Shown: piece by piece, positions 2,148 through 23,288 of the stretch
How the letters are laid out: the number at the start of each line of letters is the position of its first letter
Position numbering within the stretch: position 1 is the stretch's first letter
Assembly: GCA_018697035.1 (NCBI GenBank)
Contig: JABHSE010000004.1
Span: forward strand, 20,211-44,210
DNA: 24,000 nt
From: an archaeon
GTDB lineage: Archaea > Nanobdellota > Nanobdellia > Pacearchaeales > GW2011-AR1
Direction: 5' to 3'
Translations under genes and position numbers: made by a program
The notes under the pieces: model-generated
What the model was told of the DNA's origin: nothing
Database searches by the model: none
The model's input: the letters and a program-made list of their open reading frames with translations, nothing else

Positions 2148-2501
2148 TCACTTCCCCAAAAACCTATCACAAAAATACCCAACCAAACTCTCACAATCAT
2201 ACCTCACATCCCCACCAATCTCCGCTTGCAGCCAATCAAAATAATCCCCACTCTCTTCATCATACGCAATATATTCAACAGCCGAACTCCGAACAACCCT
2301 ATCGGTTTCCCAGCAAAAATACATAGGAAAAGAATATTTCCCACCCTCATAAGTCGCCATACTCAAATCAACAACACTATCGGGAAACTCAGTCGACAAC
2401 TCATGAACCATACCCAAAACCTCCCTAACCTGATCCGGCATCTCAACATCAACCTTCCCCTCAATAACATCAACCAACATCTCAATTCCCTTGACCTTCA
2501 T
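2148..2501 (-). CDS. Hypothetical acidic protein (117 aa), third gene of the DUF1963-led operon
   Basis: ORF from the track. Its ATG overlaps the upstream stop codon (ATGA at 2498-2501). Composition matches neighbouring native genes. I recognise no motif. Confidence 0.6.
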   Translation of the reverse strand: MKVKGIEMLVDVIEGKVDVEMPDQVREVLGMVHELSTEFPDSVVDLSMATYEGGKYSFPMYFCWETDRVVRSSAVEYIAYDEESGDYFDWLQAEIGGDVRYDCESLVGYFCDRFLGK

Positions 2502-3007
2502 CTCCTATTCAACCTCCCCCAAACCGCCTCAAGCTCAACCGGAACCTCATCCGGAAAAAAACCATAAAACGAAGAAGACAAAGTAGGGAAAGAATCCACA
2601 GTTCGAATCTTAATCCACTCACACAATCTATTTTTTATTTCTCCCTCAAAACTAAATTTCTCATCCAAAAAAAATTGATAATTGGCCTCCCTCACAAAAA
2701 CATCCTCACTTCCCCGTCCCATAGTCAAAGTCTGTATCTCATCCACCACAGACGAACCAGCAAGCCCAGTCTCCTCTCTCACAATACTATCTATCTCCTG
2801 AATACTCTTCACCGGCTTAACTTTCCCAAAAGAAAAAAATCCACCCTTCCTCTCATCAACCTTAATAGAATAGTCATGAAAAGTAGTATAGGTAGAAACA
2901 GAATTACTAACCCCCAAACGATACTTCTCCAAAGAAACGCCCTCAATACTATTCAAAACATCCCCAACCTTTCCATAAACTTTAATTCTTTCTTGTAAAA
3001 TATTCAT
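2498..3007 (-). CDS. Hypothetical protein (169 aa), second gene of the DUF1963-led operon
   Basis: ORF from the track. GAGGT lies about 10 nt upstream of the ATG at 3007, and the gene is translationally coupled to the downstream gene. I recognise no motif. Confidence 0.6.
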   Translation of the reverse strand: MNILQERIKVYGKVGDVLNSIEGVSLEKYRLGVSNSVSTYTTFHDYSIKVDERKGGFFSFGKVKPVKSIQEIDSIVREETGLAGSSVVDEIQTLTMGRGSEDVFVREANYQFFLDEKFSFEGEIKNRLCEWIKIRTVDSFPTLSSSFYGFFPDEVPVELEAVWGRLNRR

Positions 3008-3042
3008 TTCAATTTAACCTCATAATCTCGACCCATTCTCCC

Positions 3043-4185
3043 CTAAGTACAAGACCCATCAGTCTTGCAATAAACCTGATTACTCTCCTGCCCCAAACAC
3101 TTCAAGCAACCATCAACTTGATAAGTAAAATCGTGATCACGATCAGTCCAATTAACAATCGGTCCCATTCTATGTAAACCATGATAAGTATTCTGACAAG
3201 CAAACCTTCTATTACCCTGCTGACTCTCAGGCTTCCCAAAAAATTGATAATCTCCTTCCCTTCCAAAAATCTCCGGATGATCCTCCTCCACATCATACAT
3301 CCAATCCTCCCCATAATCCTCCCCAGGAATATCCAAATCAAACTTAAGCGCCACTCCCTCCAAGCTCCGAATAGAAATATTAGATTCAATCCCATTATCT
3401 TTAACAAACTGAGAAACAACATCTCTATACTCTTCAACATTCATCACCTTACCTTTATCCCCCTCATATCTCTGCTCTGCATGTATCATCGAATCAAAAG
3501 CCGGACTATCAAAATGAGGCTCATTACAATAAAACATCTGAAAAAATGGCCTATGCGCAGAGCTATCACTACATATAGTCCTACCAAATCCAACTCCACT
3601 ATACTGACTAGATTTAAGATCCAAACTAGTAACTTTAGGCCCACTATCCATACCACCCCCAGTCATAACATGAATAGGAATTAACCAATCACTTAAATCG
3701 ACACCACCCAAAAAATTCATATGTTCGTTACATCCCCCACACTTAGGCCATAAATTAGAAACAACCTCCAAAGGCGTCTTTCCCCCAGAATGCTGAAATC
3801 TATAAGTATACCTAAAATCCGGAACACCTCCAAATTTAGATCCCTCAATAGGATCCACATCCAAAGCTCCAGAAAGGTTAGTATCAAGACGATAAGCCAA
3901 AGGATAAATCCCTTCTCCATTAACTTCTCTCAAAATCCCTTGCGCCAAATCCCACTGCTTCACCCACTCTCTAGAATTCGCCTCAAGTGCCTCAGCTCTA
4001 TTTTCTCCAATCTTCGCAAGAAGTTCTTTCTTAATTTTTTCAGGATATCCATCACGAATAAAACGCGCCTCATTAAAATCAGTCTCACTAAAATCTAAAG
4101 GCCCTCTCCGAATATGCCTAACTATATGAGGATTCCATTCATCCAAAACTGTTTTTTGAGGAAAAGTAAATTTATCCTGATTCAT
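3043..4185 (-). CDS. DUF1963 / YwqG-like protein
   Basis: ORF 3043..4257 begins with TTG. I prefer the ATG at 4185 (MNQDKFTF...) because a TATA-like 'tttttaaattg' box lies about 30 nt upstream. Motifs: SKFGGVPDF...LWPKCGGCNEHMNFLGGVDL near the middle and YQFFGKPESQQG near the C-terminus. These resemble the G-G-x-P ... W-P-x-C-x-x-C ... and second G-x-P-x-x-x-Q signatures of the YwqG family. Confidence 0.6.
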   Translation of the reverse strand: MNQDKFTFPQKTVLDEWNPHIVRHIRRGPLDFSETDFNEARFIRDGYPEKIKKELLAKIGENRAEALEANSREWVKQWDLAQGILREVNGEGIYPLAYRLDTNLSGALDVDPIEGSKFGGVPDFRYTYRFQHSGGKTPLEVVSNLWPKCGGCNEHMNFLGGVDLSDWLIPIHVMTGGGMDSGPKVTSLDLKSSQYSGVGFGRTICSDSSAHRPFFQMFYCNEPHFDSPAFDSMIHAEQRYEGDKGKVMNVEEYRDVVSQFVKDNGIESNISIRSLEGVALKFDLDIPGEDYGEDWMYDVEEDHPEIFGREGDYQFFGKPESQQGNRRFACQNTYHGLHRMGPIVNWTDRDHDFTYQVDGCLKCLGQESNQVYCKTDGSCT

Positions 4186-5011: not shown

Positions 5012-6472
5012 ATGAAAAAAGAGGCATTAATCCTGACCCTGTCGATAACATTCTCACTATTCCTATCCCTCGCCTCCGCATCAATGATAACAATCCAAGA
5101 CGACAAAAGCCTCAACGAAGGAGACACTTGGTACGTCGGAGAAGGATATAGTATCAAAATAACAAGTATAGACACAACCGCACAAATCAGCTTCAGCCTA
5201 GACGGAAACGAACTAGAAAGCCAAACCCTATCACAAGGAGAATTCTACACCTACTCAAACGTCTTCAACACAACCATAGAATCAATATCAGCAGGAAGCG
5301 TATCACTCAAAAACTCCTCAATGAACTCAGACACAATAGGAGCAACAGTTCCCTCCATGACAAAAATACAAAGTGCGGGAATATCAGGGAGCACACTAAC
5401 AGAAGGACAAATCTGGTACGTCAGCGGAGGATACAGTGTATACGCCAACGACATAGACATGGACTCGAACCCAAAATCAGCACAAATCATCCTACTAAAA
5501 GATTGCACACAAGTCAAAGAAGAACTAGTAAACGAGGGCGAAAATATAGATTACAACGGAGAATTCATTGCAAAAGTAAATACGCTGTCAGGAACAACCG
5601 AAAAAACAATAAAATTCTCAGACACATCCCTCTCTCCCTCTTTCTCAGTGCATAGCACAGGGTATCAAACTTGCGTAATCACCTGCACAGAAGATTGGAG
5701 CTGCGAAACTTGGACCGAATGCTCGTCCGAACAACAAACAAGAGAATGCACAGATTCAAACACATGCGGGACAACCAACACTAAACCAGAAGTAACTCAG
5801 GCATGCACTTCCACTCCCATCGCAACATGTACCGAAGATTGGAATTGTACAGAATGGACTGAATGTATAAATAACGAACAAACAAAAGAATGCACGGACT
5901 CAAATTCCTGCGGAACAACAGACAGTAGGCCAGAAGTAACTCAAGCCTGTAATTATGAAACAGATATACCAGCCCCAGAAGGAGAGGTCTATCCTGAAAA
6001 TCAATTAGCAGATACAACTCTACAACAGAATACAACAAGCCAGAATACTCCGATGAAAGAAAAAATCACTTCCCAAATATTCGAAGTAACAATTCAAGAT
6101 GAAAAAATATCCCTAGAGAAATTCTCAAATGGAGTAAACGTAATAAACACAAGTCTCAACTACATAAAAACACCACTGAACATCATAATGAAATCATCAA
6201 AGCTCTATGTGAACTTATCAGGAGAAGAGATAGAAATGAAAATTTCCCCAGAGCAAGCGGTTGAAAATTCTCTTATATTAGGAAACATAGAAAACGTGGG
6301 AATTACAAAACACAATAAAAGAGCAGTCTATTCGGTCACTGGAACAGAGAAAGTAAAACTATTCTTTATCTTCCCAGTCCTATCCGGAATCGAGGCAAAA
6401 GTAGATATCGAAACAGGAGAAATTCTTAAAGTAGAAAGATCATGGTGGCACTTTCTAACATCCAGTATCTAA
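5012..6472 (+). CDS. Secreted or surface protein with two N-terminal beta-rich repeats, two Cys-rich repeats and a C-terminal globular domain
   Basis: Signal-peptide-like N-terminus (MKKEALILTLSITFSLFLSLASA). Two homologous modules of about 100 aa contain EGDTWYVGEGYSI and EGQIWYVSGGYSV. Two 6-Cys repeats of about 41 aa follow (CTEDW-C-(E/T)W-TEC...Q-(T)-(R/K)ECTDSN-CGTT...PEVTQAC). The protein is rich in Thr, Ser and Asn. Confidence 0.8.
   Translation: MKKEALILTLSITFSLFLSLASASMITIQDDKSLNEGDTWYVGEGYSIKITSIDTTAQISFSLDGNELESQTLSQGEFYTYSNVFNTTIESISAGSVSLKNSSMNSDTIGATVPSMTKIQSAGISGSTLTEGQIWYVSGGYSVYANDIDMDSNPKSAQIILLKDCTQVKEELVNEGENIDYNGEFIAKVNTLSGTTEKTIKFSDTSLSPSFSVHSTGYQTCVITCTEDWSCETWTECSSEQQTRECTDSNTCGTTNTKPEVTQACTSTPIATCTEDWNCTEWTECINNEQTKECTDSNSCGTTDSRPEVTQACNYETDIPAPEGEVYPENQLADTTLQQNTTSQNTPMKEKITSQIFEVTIQDEKISLEKFSNGVNVINTSLNYIKTPLNIIMKSSKLYVNLSGEEIEMKISPEQAVENSLILGNIENVGITKHNKRAVYSVTGTEKVKLFFIFPVLSGIEAKVDIETGEILKVERSWWHFLTSSI
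5684..5950 (+). repeat. In-gene tandem duplication (period 144 nt) encoding the Cys-rich repeat
   Basis: The repeat units start at 5684 (tgcacagaagattggagctgc...) and 5828 (tgtaccgaagattggaattgt...). Both end in ccagaagtaactca(g/a)gc(a/c)tg. Confidence 0.85.
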
Positions 6473-9951: not shown

Positions 9952-10275
9952 ATGGAAATCAACGTAACCGACATAAACTTCCAAAAAGAAGTAATAAAAA
10001 AATCAAGTGAAACCCCAGTCCTAGTAGACTTCTGGGCTTCATGGTGCGGACCCTGCATGATGCTAGGCCCAACGCTAGAAAAAATCGCAAAAGAATACGA
10101 TGGAAAACTGATAGTAGCAAAAGCAGCAACTGACGAGAACGCAGATGCAGCATCCAAATTCGGAGTAATGTCAATCCCAGCAGTAAAACTTTTCAAAGAC
10201 GGCAAAGTCATAGACGAATTCGTCGGAGCCCAACCCGAAGCCACAATCAAACAATGGCTAGATCAAAAATTATAA
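9952..10275 (+). CDS. trxA: Thioredoxin
   Basis: 107 aa with the WCGPC active site (FWASWCGPCMMLGP) and a thioredoxin-fold pattern (...MSIPAVKLFKDGK...). Confidence 0.95.
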   Translation: MEINVTDINFQKEVIKKSSETPVLVDFWASWCGPCMMLGPTLEKIAKEYDGKLIVAKAATDENADAASKFGVMSIPAVKLFKDGKVIDEFVGAQPEATIKQWLDQKL

Positions 10276-10314
10276 TTATAAAAAATCCGTGCAATCCGCG
10301 AAATCCGTGAGCAA

Positions 10315-11034
10315 TTATTCCCCTTCCCCAAAACAAACATCTCGCAAAACCTTCTTCCCAACAAACTCATCGTTTTCCTGAAACCGGTCCATCTCAATCC
10401 ACCGAAACCCATCCCCCTTCGCAATCTCATTAGGAGCTAAAGCACTCGGAAACGCCTTCAACCCGGCAACATCCTCCTCACTAATCCAATGATTCTCCCC
10501 CTCCCTAGTCTTCTCAATTAACTCCCCACGAGGATTCGTAGCCAAGATAACAAACATTTGATGATTATAACTAAGCTTCCCATTATTATAAGTCTTATAA
10601 GAACAAAGTCCCTTCAGCTCCAAATCACAAACCAACCCACTCTCCTCCATCAACTCCGCAGCCGCAGCCTCATAAATATACTGATCAAACTTCAACTTCC
10701 CAGCAATCGAACCCCAATAACTATAAAACGGCTCCTTCTTTCTCTCACACATCAAAAACTTTTTCTTCACATCATCATAAACGACAATAACAACACAAAC
10801 CAAAGGAGCCCTAGCTTTCTCCCCACTCTCACCCTCGAGATAGGCACAATACTTTTTCCCCTCACTACTTAAACAATATACTTCTTTTACTTTATCCACC
10901 AACCTATCCTCAACCAAAACCTTCAAATGATAAGCAAACAAATTACTCGCTCCAACATTACCCCACAACTCATTAAAACCCATCTCCCGCTTATGCATCA
11001 ACTTCCGCAAAATCTCCCGCCGTTCTTTCTTCAT
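10315..11034 (-). CDS. Winged-helix (ArsR-like) plus Nudix-domain fusion protein
   Basis: N-terminus RREILRKLMHKREMGFNELWGNVGASNLFAYHLKVLVEDRLV is wHTH-like. The Nudix box GKLKFDQYIYEAAAAELMEESGL compares with the consensus GX5EX7REUXEEXGU. The first E is Q and the R is A, while the EUXEEXGU part is intact. Confidence 0.75.
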   Translation of the reverse strand: MKKERREILRKLMHKREMGFNELWGNVGASNLFAYHLKVLVEDRLVDKVKEVYCLSSEGKKYCAYLEGESGEKARAPLVCVVIVVYDDVKKKFLMCERKKEPFYSYWGSIAGKLKFDQYIYEAAAAELMEESGLVCDLELKGLCSYKTYNNGKLSYNHQMFVILATNPRGELIEKTREGENHWISEEDVAGLKAFPSALAPNEIAKGDGFRWIEMDRFQENDEFVGKKVLRDVCFGEGE

Positions 11035-11107: not shown

Positions 11108-11179
11108 AAAGTCATAGACGAATTCGTCGGCGCACAACCAGAAGCCACAATCAAACAATGGCTAGATCAGAAGTTATAA
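11108..11179 (+). pseudogene. Detached second copy of the last 23 codons plus stop of thioredoxin
   Basis: 72 nt align with 10204-10275 without gaps. There are 5 differences (gga/ggc, gcc/gca, ccc/cca, caa/cag, aaa/aag), all at synonymous third positions. Both copies translate to KVIDEFVGAQPEATIKQWLDQKL*. Upstream of 11108 the homology decays, with an in-frame-breaking deletion and a tag. Confidence 0.9.
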
Positions 11180-12226: not shown

Positions 12227-12300
12227 GAGGCTGTGGCGCAGTCAGGTAGCGCACTGCTCTGATAAGGCAGGGGTCCGCGGTTCAAATCCGCGCAGCCTCA
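12227..12300 (+). tRNA. tRNA-Ile (anticodon GAT), 74 nt, no encoded CCA, no intron
   Basis: Hand-folded. Acceptor gaggctg/cagcctc, D arm gcgc-agtcaggta-gcgc, anticodon arm ctgct-CTGATAA-ggcag, variable gggtc, T arm cgcgg-ttcaaat-ccgcg, discriminator a. A TATA-like 'ttataaataaaaaa' box lies about 30 nt upstream. Confidence 0.9.
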
Positions 12301-12322
12301 TATGGATCTGAAACAAGGACGT

Positions 12323-12414
12323 GTCCGTGGCGAACAATTTGCTCGAATTTTTATTGCAAAGCAATTATAAAAATTTTAGAGTGAATTGTGAGTAAAATCC
12401 GCGCAGCCTCATAT
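12323..12414 (+). repeat. Partial second copy of the tRNA-Ile 3' third, interrupted by a 65-nt palindromic module
   Basis: gtccgtgg (12323-12330) matches the tRNA variable/T-stem gtccgcgg (12273-12280). The module occupies 12331-12395. aaatccgcgcagcctcatat (12395-12414) is an exact copy of 12284-12303. Confidence 0.85.
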
Positions 12415-23064: not shown

Positions 23065-23139
23065 GGCTTCGTAGCTCAGCCTGGTTAGAGCACTAGACTC
23101 TTAATCTAGGTGTCGGGGGTTCAAATCCCCTCGAGGCCA
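23065..23139 (+). tRNA. tRNA-Lys (anticodon CTT), 75 nt, no encoded CCA, no intron
   Basis: Hand-folded. Acceptor ggcttcg/cgaggcc (one G-T pair), D arm gctc-agcctggtta-gagc, anticodon arm ctaga-CTCTTAA-tctag, variable gtgtc, T arm ggggg-ttcaaat-cccct, discriminator a. Confidence 0.9.
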
Positions 23140-23144
23140 TATAA

Positions 23145-23164
23145 ATGCCATCGCAAGATGGCAT
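23145..23164 (+). other. 8-bp perfect hairpin with a GCAA (GNRA) tetraloop in the tRNA-Lys trailer
   Basis: atgccatc-gcaa-gatggcat, read directly from the sequence. Confidence 0.6.
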
Positions 23165-23197
23165 ATTCTACTCTCTGTGTATTTCAAGTCACGGCAA

Positions 23198-23288
23198 TGT
23201 CGGGGCGAACGATTTGCTCGAATTTTTATTGCGAAGCGATTAGAAATTTTTAGAGTGAATCGTGAGTAATTCAAATCCCCTCGAGACA
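23198..23288 (+). repeat. Partial second copy of the tRNA-Lys 3' third, interrupted by the same palindromic module (64 nt)
   Basis: tgtcgggg (23198-23205) matches the tRNA tgtcggggg (23111-23119). The module occupies 23206-23269. ttcaaatcccctcgag (23270-23285) is an exact copy of 23120-23135. The acceptor strand then degenerates (gaca versus ggcca). Confidence 0.85.

Follow-up and report, generated by a model that had tools for sequence, protein, structure and literature searches.

Hairpin-bearing partial tRNA gene copies beside intact tRNA genes of Woesearchaeota/Pacearchaeota-type archaea: a candidate tRNA-gene-specific insertion element

Transfer RNA (tRNA) genes are classic landing sites of mobile DNA, and the archaeal ones are moreover fragmented by introns, splits and permutations. 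The subject of this report is a family of short units, each consisting of a partial tRNA copy that carries a 64-nt hairpin, found beside intact tRNA genes in a 24,000-nt stretch of the genome of a Pacearchaeales archaeon (assembly GCA_018697035.1, contig JABHSE010000004.1, positions 20,211 to 44,210 of the forward strand; hereafter the window) and in related archaea. [quoted passage not shown] The tRNA fragments that integrated elements leave behind are frequent in archaea (PMC9897764, PMC3218864). Also comparable are the disrupted archaeal tRNA genes (non-canonical or transposed introns, split and permuted genes), in which the same short insert recurs at equivalent positions, often in loops and including the T-loop, and whose link with mobile elements has already been suspected (PMC4090602, PMC3218864). 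Our units share all of these features of the att repeats, but their inserted DNA is only 90–150 bp long and contains no integrase or other gene, they have the 64-nt hairpin always at the junction with the displaced piece, their junctions fall at several tRNA positions instead of one per integrase, and the repeat ranges from 7 to more than 85 nt. Unlike the disrupted genes, the hairpin-bearing copies are non-functional and stand beside an intact tRNA, with the hairpin often antisense. The hairpin family was not found described in our searches of the literature and Rfam and is apparently undescribed. Our preferred reading, plausible though held tentatively, is that the units are a non-autonomous insertion element specific to tRNA genes, with a terminal recognition hairpin that acts as a folded strand and with its own replacement tRNA segment, and that they form a repeat family specific to the tRNA genes of Woesearchaeota/Pacearchaeota-type archaea.

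The intact tRNA-Ile(GAT) gene of the window lies at 12227–12300 on the + strand (ARAGORN; Rfam RF00005, 68.5 bits), complete as the preliminary description of this DNA had stated, and its sequence is that of the relatives L092, L097 and L103 (such numbers designate related loci throughout). It has no encoded CCA and no T-run behind it. The interval 12301–12330 (+) begins with the trailer TAT, and the 27 nt that follow are a proximal, degenerate copy of the tRNA reaching approximately from the anticodon loop to the 5' strand of the T-stem. They end with GTCCGTGG (12323–12330), which, as first noticed, resembles GTCCGCGG of the variable-loop/T-stem segment (12273–12280), the two agreeing at 7 of 8 positions. 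This fragment had been thought to restart at the variable loop; the copy is indeed present, but its weak similarity to the tRNA, read by eye, extends further back, to the anticodon loop. The counterparts of the segment in L009, L087, L097 and L103 are homologous yet diverged, and their matches to the tRNA are now short. The hairpin module comes next, at 12331–12394 (+), recognised by its fold, its covariation and a covariance model, R1 (91.6 bits at 12330–12393), and without a match in Rfam; it measures 64 nt and not the 65 nt given at first, position 12395 already belonging to the repeat. From base to tip it is composed of a closing C-G pair, a tandem G.A, a covarying helix of 4 bp, the conserved TTTGCTC/GAGTGAA helix, a bulge of 2 nt, a helix of A/T pairs and a variable tip, and it is followed by a TAA tail. 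The distal piece, AAATCCGCGCAGCCTCATAT at 12395–12414 (+), is an exact copy of the 20 nt at 12284–12303, as had been claimed, and contains T-loop positions 58–60, the 3' strand of the T-stem, the 3' strand of the acceptor stem, the discriminator base and 3 nt of trailer. Among the local exact direct repeats of the window none other is as long, and the maximum over 200 shuffles was 16 nt; the block is perfect elsewhere too, over 25 nt in L097 and 22 nt in L087.

The window contains exactly two tRNA genes according to both ARAGORN and Rfam, both on the + strand, and the second, tRNA-Lys(CTT) at 23065–23139 (+; ARAGORN; Rfam 69 bits), likewise has no encoded CCA. Its surroundings are built in the same way, in the order tRNA, spacer, degenerate segment, 64-nt insert and exact tRNA repeat, and the Ile and Lys inserts have in common an identical 20-mer (2 hits in the window versus 0 expected), which bears out the earlier observation that the same insertion is present at another tRNA. 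Between tRNA-Lys and its unit there is a spacer hairpin, ATGCCATC-GCAA-GATGGCAT (23145–23164, +), which is kept in L097 with a GTCA loop; L001 has the unrelated GGGAATT-ATA-AATTCCC instead. The proximal degenerate segment (23165–23205, +) has ATGTCGGGG at its end and resembles the variable loop and the T-stem 5' strand, with a tRNA match of 7 nt only; L001 has it almost unchanged and L097 with about 70% identity. The Lys copy of the hairpin module (23206–23269, +; R1 84.6 bits at 23205–23267, and fold) is placed exactly between the T-stem 5' strand and an intact T-loop. The insertion point at or near T-loop position 53/54 that had been proposed is thus precise for Lys and does not hold for Ile, whose copy is devoid of T-loop positions 54–57 (TTCA). 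The distal copy TTCAAATCCCCTCGAG (23270–23285, +) is an exact 16-mer of 23120–23135 comprising the T-loop, the T-stem 3' strand and the start of the acceptor 3' strand, and the final acceptor bases have drifted (GACA versus GGCCA); in the relatives this block is perfect over 22 nt (L097) or matches at 22 of 23 positions (L001). The two pairs of repeats in the window enclose 91–134 bp with no open reading frame (ORF).

The same arrangement recurs in related archaea. The window itself contains, according to Pfam, genes for ribosomal protein L15e, a TFS/RPB9-type zinc ribbon protein, seryl-tRNA synthetase and other host proteins. The insert had a single match in genome collections, in a Candidatus Woesearchaeota metagenome-assembled genome; an 18-mer scan of metagenome contigs returned 81 loci, 8 of them true copies and the others chance matches, and more copies were obtained by walking along the L15e homologues, which carry the labels archaeon, Pacearchaeota or Nanoarchaeota. 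This yielded 14 distinct hairpin copies, all in archaeal contigs. Thirteen of them stand in or beside tRNA-derived sequence, the association with tRNA fragments that the preliminary description had asked to be checked, and L027 is cut by the contig start. The hairpin was found at about half of the tRNA genes sampled in the related genomes; in the window's own genome, over the 41 kb examined, there are two tRNAs, two hairpins and no further copies.

Units with the window's layout accompany tRNA-Ile in L009, L087, L097 and L103, and tRNA-Lys units were found in L001/L030 and L097. At tRNA-Phe (L011, L015, L081, L035) the intact gene is preceded by an almost complete copy of itself that also includes a copy of the promoter region; the hairpin is inserted in the opposite orientation at approximately positions 40–43, the junction of the anticodon stem and the variable region, and the copy ends in the T-stem 3' strand. 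In L035 the same tRNA is followed by a second unit, whose hairpin is placed at the T-stem/acceptor junction; the close relative L011 lacks this unit. In the tRNA-Tyr copy of L083/L084, about 60 nt upstream of the gene, the anticodon loop contains the hairpin in reverse. L023 has a tRNA-Glu(TTC)-like pseudogene (300–490, +) with a reversed hairpin in the anticodon stem, a second insert of 32 nt in the T-loop and an encoded CCA; it adjoins a Fic-family gene, no intact tRNA lies in the 1.6 kb covered, and the locus of an 87% homologue of the Fic-like protein (L107) has an ordinary tRNA-Glu and no hairpin. The module consequently is not specific to the T-loop or to 3' fragments, as it had appeared from the window; it occurs on both sides of the intact gene, upstream and downstream, and with respect to the tRNA it can have either orientation. 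That the units arose by chance tandem duplication or are an artefact of assembly has a practically negligible probability. Nothing beyond the small size of the repeats speaks for it, and it is refuted by the recurrence of the layout in independent assemblies (ENA, JGI, NCBI, Logan) and at five tRNA species, in addition to a 20-nt repeat that exceeds all 200 shuffles and a shared 20-mer with two hits where none is expected.

When the 26-nt stretches flanking the hairpin on both sides were aligned with the adjoining intact tRNA and scored for 12 unit copies, a common topology emerged. The distal flank is perfect or near-perfect (12–25 nt or more) and the proximal one is degenerate in 11 of the 12 copies, which represent four of five independent loci. 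Downstream of tRNA-Ile and tRNA-Lys, where the hairpin is sense, the distal flank is perfect or has one mismatch over 12–25 nt, starting 1–3 nt off the hairpin, and about 7–10 nt of the proximal flank are kept (14 of 17 nt at the Ile unit of L097). Upstream of tRNA-Phe and tRNA-Tyr, where the hairpin is antisense, the distal flank is perfect over 23–25 of the 26 nt aligned and the proximal flank is near-perfect over 17–19 nt, set apart from the hairpin at Tyr. The antisense unit downstream of tRNA-Phe in L035 has a distal flank of 7 nt and a proximal one of 9 nt. The apparent conflict between sense-downstream and antisense-upstream units is resolved because the loci can be read in the hairpin's own sense. 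The perfect flank then adjoins the hairpin's 3' foot at the Ile, Lys, upstream Phe and upstream Tyr units, and the order is host 5' side, then the unit (host 3'-side copy, spacer, degenerate host 5'-side copy, hairpin), then original host 3' side. At every locus only 3–85 bp separate the intact tRNA from the fragment. This is the layout expected of an integration into a tRNA gene in which the incoming DNA replaces the displaced piece, here in a form of about 90–150 bp, without genes and with a hairpin at its end.

The tRNA-Ile site also exists in different states among the relatives syntenic at L15e. Besides the window, it is filled in L009, L087, L097 and L103; it is empty in L084 and L092, where a T-run comes right after the tRNA, and in L099, where the start of a gene does; and in L085 it is decayed, with the T-stem sequence of that lineage. 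Empty sites, the search for which had been suggested, are therefore at hand, and the upstream flank of the empty L092 is very similar to that of the filled L103. The copies furthermore exchange their parts. The Ile hairpin of L103 combines the basal helix GAAGC/GTTC of the L011 Phe unit with the upper stem of the L035 Phe, L084 Tyr and L097 Lys units, and at the Lys locus the upper stem is of type A in the window and L001 and of type B in L097. The tRNA-Ile of L087 has two acceptor base pairs unlike those of its relatives, and its distal copy has the same two changes, whereas in L009, L103 and the Lys unit of the window the acceptor part of the distal copy has drifted by 1–3 bases; for this reason the flanks either are homogenised with the tRNA at intervals or are formed anew.

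The mechanism that would account best for these data is one in which the element enters a tRNA gene, usually at or near a loop, and supplies a substitute for the piece that it displaces, so that an intact tRNA is rebuilt and the conserved hairpin ends up against the displaced original piece. The hairpin would serve as a cis-acting recognition site in the form of a folded single strand, either top-strand DNA or RNA, and a recombinase supplied in trans would join the DNA at the hairpin's 3' foot. Formally this would resemble the Campbell-type integration of a mini-circle that has, as its attachment site, a hairpin-interrupted tRNA segment. Afterwards the copies may persist, swap sub-modules and flanks by gene conversion, be lost cleanly in some cases and decay in others. 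What the sequences show is the anatomy, the topology, the strand-specific pairing of the hairpin, the presence and absence among relatives and the exchange of modules; mobility as such, recognition of a single strand, the site of the crossover and the enzyme acting in trans are inferred. Of the three readings in the preliminary description, the one closest to the data is that of a composite attachment or recognition site belonging to a tRNA-targeting mobile element not described before.

A number of observations weigh against the insertion element. No recombinase, integrase or transposase is present in or beside any unit and nothing of the kind could be connected with the family. Neither the approximately 400 kb of related loci nor three scans of viral contigs yielded a full-size element with the hairpin, and the viral scans had no hairpin hits. 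The unit downstream of tRNA-Phe in L035 violates the 3'-foot rule, the repeat at the upstream Phe unit is at least 85 nt long, which is too much for a duplication of fixed length, and the insertion points share no target motif or short target-site duplication. The Ile and Lys copies of the window are only 86% identical, that is, they have diverged within one genome, and therefore there is no sign of a recent burst. The Lys hairpin folded as DNA is not clearly above shuffles (z −0.9), which favours RNA over single-stranded DNA. Finally, the Lys units of the window and L001 are nearly identical from ACTCTCTG to the end, the adjacent spacer being unrelated and the neighbouring TFS protein only 74% identical; conservation so far above that of the flanking intergenic DNA points to purifying selection in place, unlike what would be expected of a purely selfish relic.

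The resemblance to integrase-generated att sites has to be considered separately. The statement of the preliminary description that the layout is not of att type was too strong because a direct repeat made up of the tRNA end, 16–25 nt long (20 nt at Ile, 16 nt at Lys, 22–25 nt in L087 and L097), brackets 90–150 bp and the tRNA is restored, which is the classic signature of integration, and the sites empty in L084, L092 and L099 agree with it. No integrase or larger element lies between the repeats, however, and the gene tables of the related loci contain no Phage_integrase family. A variant of this scheme supposes that the hairpin-bearing copy is a remnant of an interrupted tRNA gene or of an att site carrying an insert, as in the model proposed for Caldiarchaeum, in which an insert-containing att sequence recombines with an insert-free tRNA gene (PMC3293823), the insert possibly persisting since it spoils the site for integration or excision. 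The hairpin does lie where an integrase of the T-loop type would exchange strands, at the border of the T-stem 5' strand and the T-loop, and the same insert is found at equivalent positions of different tRNAs, as in the transposed introns of the Thermoproteales and in that model; the protection of tRNA genes by disrupted att sites, moreover, is an established idea (PMC3293823, PMC3218864). We nevertheless regard this origin as very unlikely. In the carrier copies the acceptor strand is missing or the stems are broken. At four of the six loci with readable orientation the hairpin runs antisense to the tRNA, which rules out a spliced intron at these sites; an integrase or larger element was not seen, and a protective role would give no reason for the conserved sequence of the lower stem. 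No bulge-helix-bulge motif recurs at the hairpin borders across the copies, either.

The intron reading was in fact rejected on several grounds. A search by hand and by script for the bulge-helix-bulge motif of EndA substrates (3-nt bulge, 4-bp helix, 3-nt bulge) gave nothing consistent across copies, the one candidate at the window's Lys locus being missing in L001. The carriers are without the 5' two-fifths of the tRNA (Ile, Lys) or without the acceptor 3' strand (Phe), and the hairpin is antisense at the Phe, Tyr and Glu-like loci. An alternative 3' half, or a split or permuted tRNA, was rejected likewise: an intact tRNA is already there, the degenerate segment restores no anticodon stem, the distal acceptor strand has no 5' partner, and the bulge-helix-bulge is again missing.

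A different history would separate the two components of the unit. Integrative elements would have left att-type partial duplicates of tRNA genes, and a palindrome similar to MITEs (miniature inverted-repeat transposable elements) with a preference for tRNA-like DNA would have landed there later, being confined to the dispensable copies because hits in the intact gene are lethal. This is close to the reading in the preliminary description of a scar subsequently hit by a MITE. It fits with the presence of the hairpin in both orientations and at several tRNA positions, with the behaviour of the segment from CGA to GAG as a discrete exchangeable unit, and with the abundance in archaea of tRNA fragments left by integrated elements (PMC9897764, PMC3218864). 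A duplicate of the kind required, free of the hairpin, exists in L099 (6055–6099, − strand), where a partial T-arm copy, ACCCGGGG-TTGAACAG-TTCAATCC, with 8 extra bases at 53/54, lies just downstream of tRNA-Gly(CCC) (6100–6170); this copy may be the footprint of a deleted hairpin. The scheme leaves unexplained, though, the constant topology, that is, why the 3' foot abuts a perfect distal piece at four of five loci and the proximal piece is degenerate; the gaps of 3–85 bp would require an independent, near-total deletion of the first element at each locus; a prior fragment would be needed at about half of the sampled tRNA loci; and the hairpin has neither a target-site duplication directly flanking it nor terminal inverted repeats beyond itself. 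We consider it unlikely on balance.

With MITEs and with the repetitive extragenic palindromic (REP) and palindrome-associated transposable element (PATE) sequences our units have in common that they are short, non-coding, palindromic and multi-copy, show presence and absence among relatives, fall into sub-families and probably depend on an enzyme acting in trans; the arms of the hairpin can even be read as inverted repeats. They differ in that the palindrome makes no target-site duplication (the flanks are GG|...|TAAAAT, GGGG|...|TTCAAAT and ACAC|...|CAGG), that its outermost 4 bp vary and the inner stem is conserved, and that the module is strictly tied to tRNA-derived sequence with the target gene restored. 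A MITE in the strict sense was rejected on the first two of these counts, and no autonomous transposase relative turned up in the approximately 400 kb of related loci or in the viral contigs. A derivative of IS200/IS605 (PATE) or of REP with its associated tyrosine transposase (RAYT) was rejected as well, the unit having a single hairpin with variable bases on its 5' side (GG, AC, TG, GT, CC) and no fixed target. The same applies to a casposon, which needs a duplication of 14–15 bp and terminal inverted repeats; here the repeats are of 16–25 nt, and at least 85 nt at Phe, and the left end is not the inverse of the right.

The structure of the hairpin bears on what it may be recognised as. Folded as RNA, the + strand reaches −25.5 kcal/mol (Ile) and −29.5 kcal/mol (Lys), with z of −2.9 and −2.8, and the − strand is no better than shuffles (z −0.5 and −1.1); with DNA parameters the + strand is better again, clearly for Ile and weakly for Lys, and it has the lower free energy in 3 of 3 copies folded as RNA or DNA. 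The covariance model was built from nine copies, and the alignment comprises 13 distinct copies, the fourteenth (L103) having been added later. In this 13-copy alignment 94% of the pair cells hold standard pairs, as against 88% in shuffles, and 8 of 24 pairs have changed on both sides; the covariation score was reached by none of 500 shuffles, and sliding the partners by one column cuts pairing to about 50%. The Ile and Lys inserts of the window themselves differ by compensatory changes (ACAATT/AATTGT versus ACGATT/AATCGT). The succession of elements described above for Ile holds for the whole family, with a Y-R closing pair and a near-invariant TTTGCTC/GAGTGAA helix, and the tip is replaced wholesale between lineages yet stays paired. 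Two G.U pairs in the TTTGCTC/GAGTGAA helix are invariant in all 13 aligned copies, and wobble pairs work on one strand only. In Rfam only tRNA reached the gathering score, and the best sub-threshold hits over the units, permissive thresholds included, had E of at least 0.8.

This strand asymmetry, one strand being much more stable as RNA, together with the conserved wobble pairs, would suit a functional small RNA, a tRNA-armed hairpin released from the precursor trailer in sense units or from a divergent transcript in antisense ones and acting on tRNA metabolism or on the DNA near tRNA genes. The earlier proposal of a tRNA-linked structured RNA is of this kind; it is weakened by the two orientations and the patchy distribution. 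Compensatory changes are seen also at orthologous loci (GCTC/GAGT to GCAC/GTGT in L097), and the Lys unit, compared between genomes with 74% identity in the TFS protein, has changed much less than the DNA around it. Co-transcription of tRNA and sense unit is probable, there being no T-run between them, whereas the empty sites of L084 and L092 have one directly after the tRNA; a palindromic TATA-like box, identified by eye, is located between unit and tRNA in the upstream units. On the other hand, the arms are sense at some loci and antisense at others, and therefore no single base-pairing target fits all loci; the family is absent at three of nine syntenic tRNA-Ile sites and decayed at one; free drift affects the proximal arm and, in the distal one, the acceptor part (L009, window Lys); and the upper stem is swapped wholesale between lineages. 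The conserved T4–T6 run in the 5' arm would tend to stop archaeal transcription before the hairpin is complete. The absence of an Rfam family, of C/D or H/ACA boxes and of a kink-turn register compatible with the covarying pairs (boxes and register being judged by eye) also speaks against such an RNA, and its probability seems to us rather low.

Several particular RNA classes were examined and rejected. By-eye reading found no boxes of C/D or H/ACA RNAs. A kink-turn does not fit, as the tandem G.A at the hairpin base lacks the 3-nt bulge and the alternative register round the UA bulge breaks the covarying basal helix (also by eye). A guide RNA made of a scaffold and a 3' guide is contradicted by a perfect flank of unfixed length (7 to more than 85 nt), by the lack of a common motif 5' of the matching tRNA site and by the lack of a nuclease gene nearby. 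An antisense regulator of tRNA would suit Phe and Tyr, but the Ile and Lys arms are sense.

Returning to the insertion element, its hairpin has a parallel, by analogy of working principle, in the attC sites of integrons, which have been reported in Nanoarchaeota among other archaea (PMC9668308). In both cases an imperfect one-strand hairpin of about 60 nt, with a conserved lower stem, bulged bases and a variable tip, is located at the end of an insert with the junction at its foot. The strand-specific folding, the conserved 2-nt bulge, the invariant wobble pairs and the replaced upper stem of our hairpin are attC-like features, although by resemblance only. In contrast to integrons, the units lack a cassette ORF, are not arranged in an array and have no IntI in their vicinity; they target a tRNA gene, with a repeat of 16–25 nt instead of 6–7 nt. 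The attC boxes RYYYAAC (R'') and GTTRRRY (R') were not found at the hairpin feet in either orientation, the feet being GGCGAAC ... GTGAGTA in the module sense and TTACTCAC ... GTTCGCC on the reverse strand, each 2–3 positions off the consensus. A more far-reaching proposal, possible but rather doubtful, would be that the hairpin either is the recognition site of a new insertion system in DPANN archaea, a site-specific one that would read it as a single folded strand like attC or as RNA, target the loops of tRNA genes and bring its own replacement tRNA segment, with the units of 110–150 bp as its minimal ORF-less cargo, or is a structured RNA or DNA mark domesticated by the host at roughly half of its tRNA genes.

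In either case the units present a compact, recurrent intermediate in a little-studied group of archaea with tiny genomes, in which a conserved hairpin sits at loop positions inside tRNA-derived sequence and the rebuilt gene stands beside it, and they offer a concrete route from insertion to disrupted tRNA genes. Mobile units would be the smallest integrative elements known and a handle on an archaeal recombinase, possibly one that reads folded DNA; units retained by the host would represent a new structured element linked to tRNA. Whichever is the case, the partial tRNA copies that they directly create can be miscalled by annotation pipelines.

Some other features of the related loci deserve mention. 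At the head of the tRNA-Phe array of L035 (2090–2128, −) a different hairpin, GCGTGG-TTTGT-CCACGC, stands against the T-loop fragment GTTCGATTCTCAC, and a 23-nt tandem repeat occupies 2140–2188 at the contig end. In L011 (7857–8187, −) a match to the archaeal RNase P RNA stays at 37 bits, below the gathering score of 84, which suggests that the RNase P RNA of this clade is divergent. The only Y1 transposase gene seen in a relative, IS200-like (PF01797), occurs in L092 (11312–11731), where the tRNA-Ile site is empty, and also in L093–L096; GC-rich hairpins unrelated to the module flank it, and the module itself does not occur nearby. Genes for a reverse transcriptase (RVT_1) and a DDE_Tnp_1 transposase were noted at 2154–3185 and 7727–8665 of L099, a related small archaeal genome, as well as in L102.

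The window has other repeats as well. Two direct repeats of 78 nt (79% identical, 144 nt apart) at 5733–5954 lie inside an ORF of 486 aa (5012–6472) and are internal protein repeats; the copy of this ORF in L091 has only a faint Pfam S-layer match. A direct repeat of 72 nt, 93% identical, is found at 10204–10275 and 11108–11179: the 3' end of a thioredoxin-like ORF (9952–10275, +) recurs 904 nt downstream, and the two copies bracket a NUDIX ORF (10315–11034, −). This looks like an insertion replacing the end of a protein gene, following the logic of the tRNA units without the hairpin. Right behind its first copy, at 10284–10309, there are three tandem octamers AATCCGYG, a sequence that is also the T-loop/T-stem 3' segment of tRNA-Ile (12285 and 12396) and has 5 hits in the window versus 0.74 expected.

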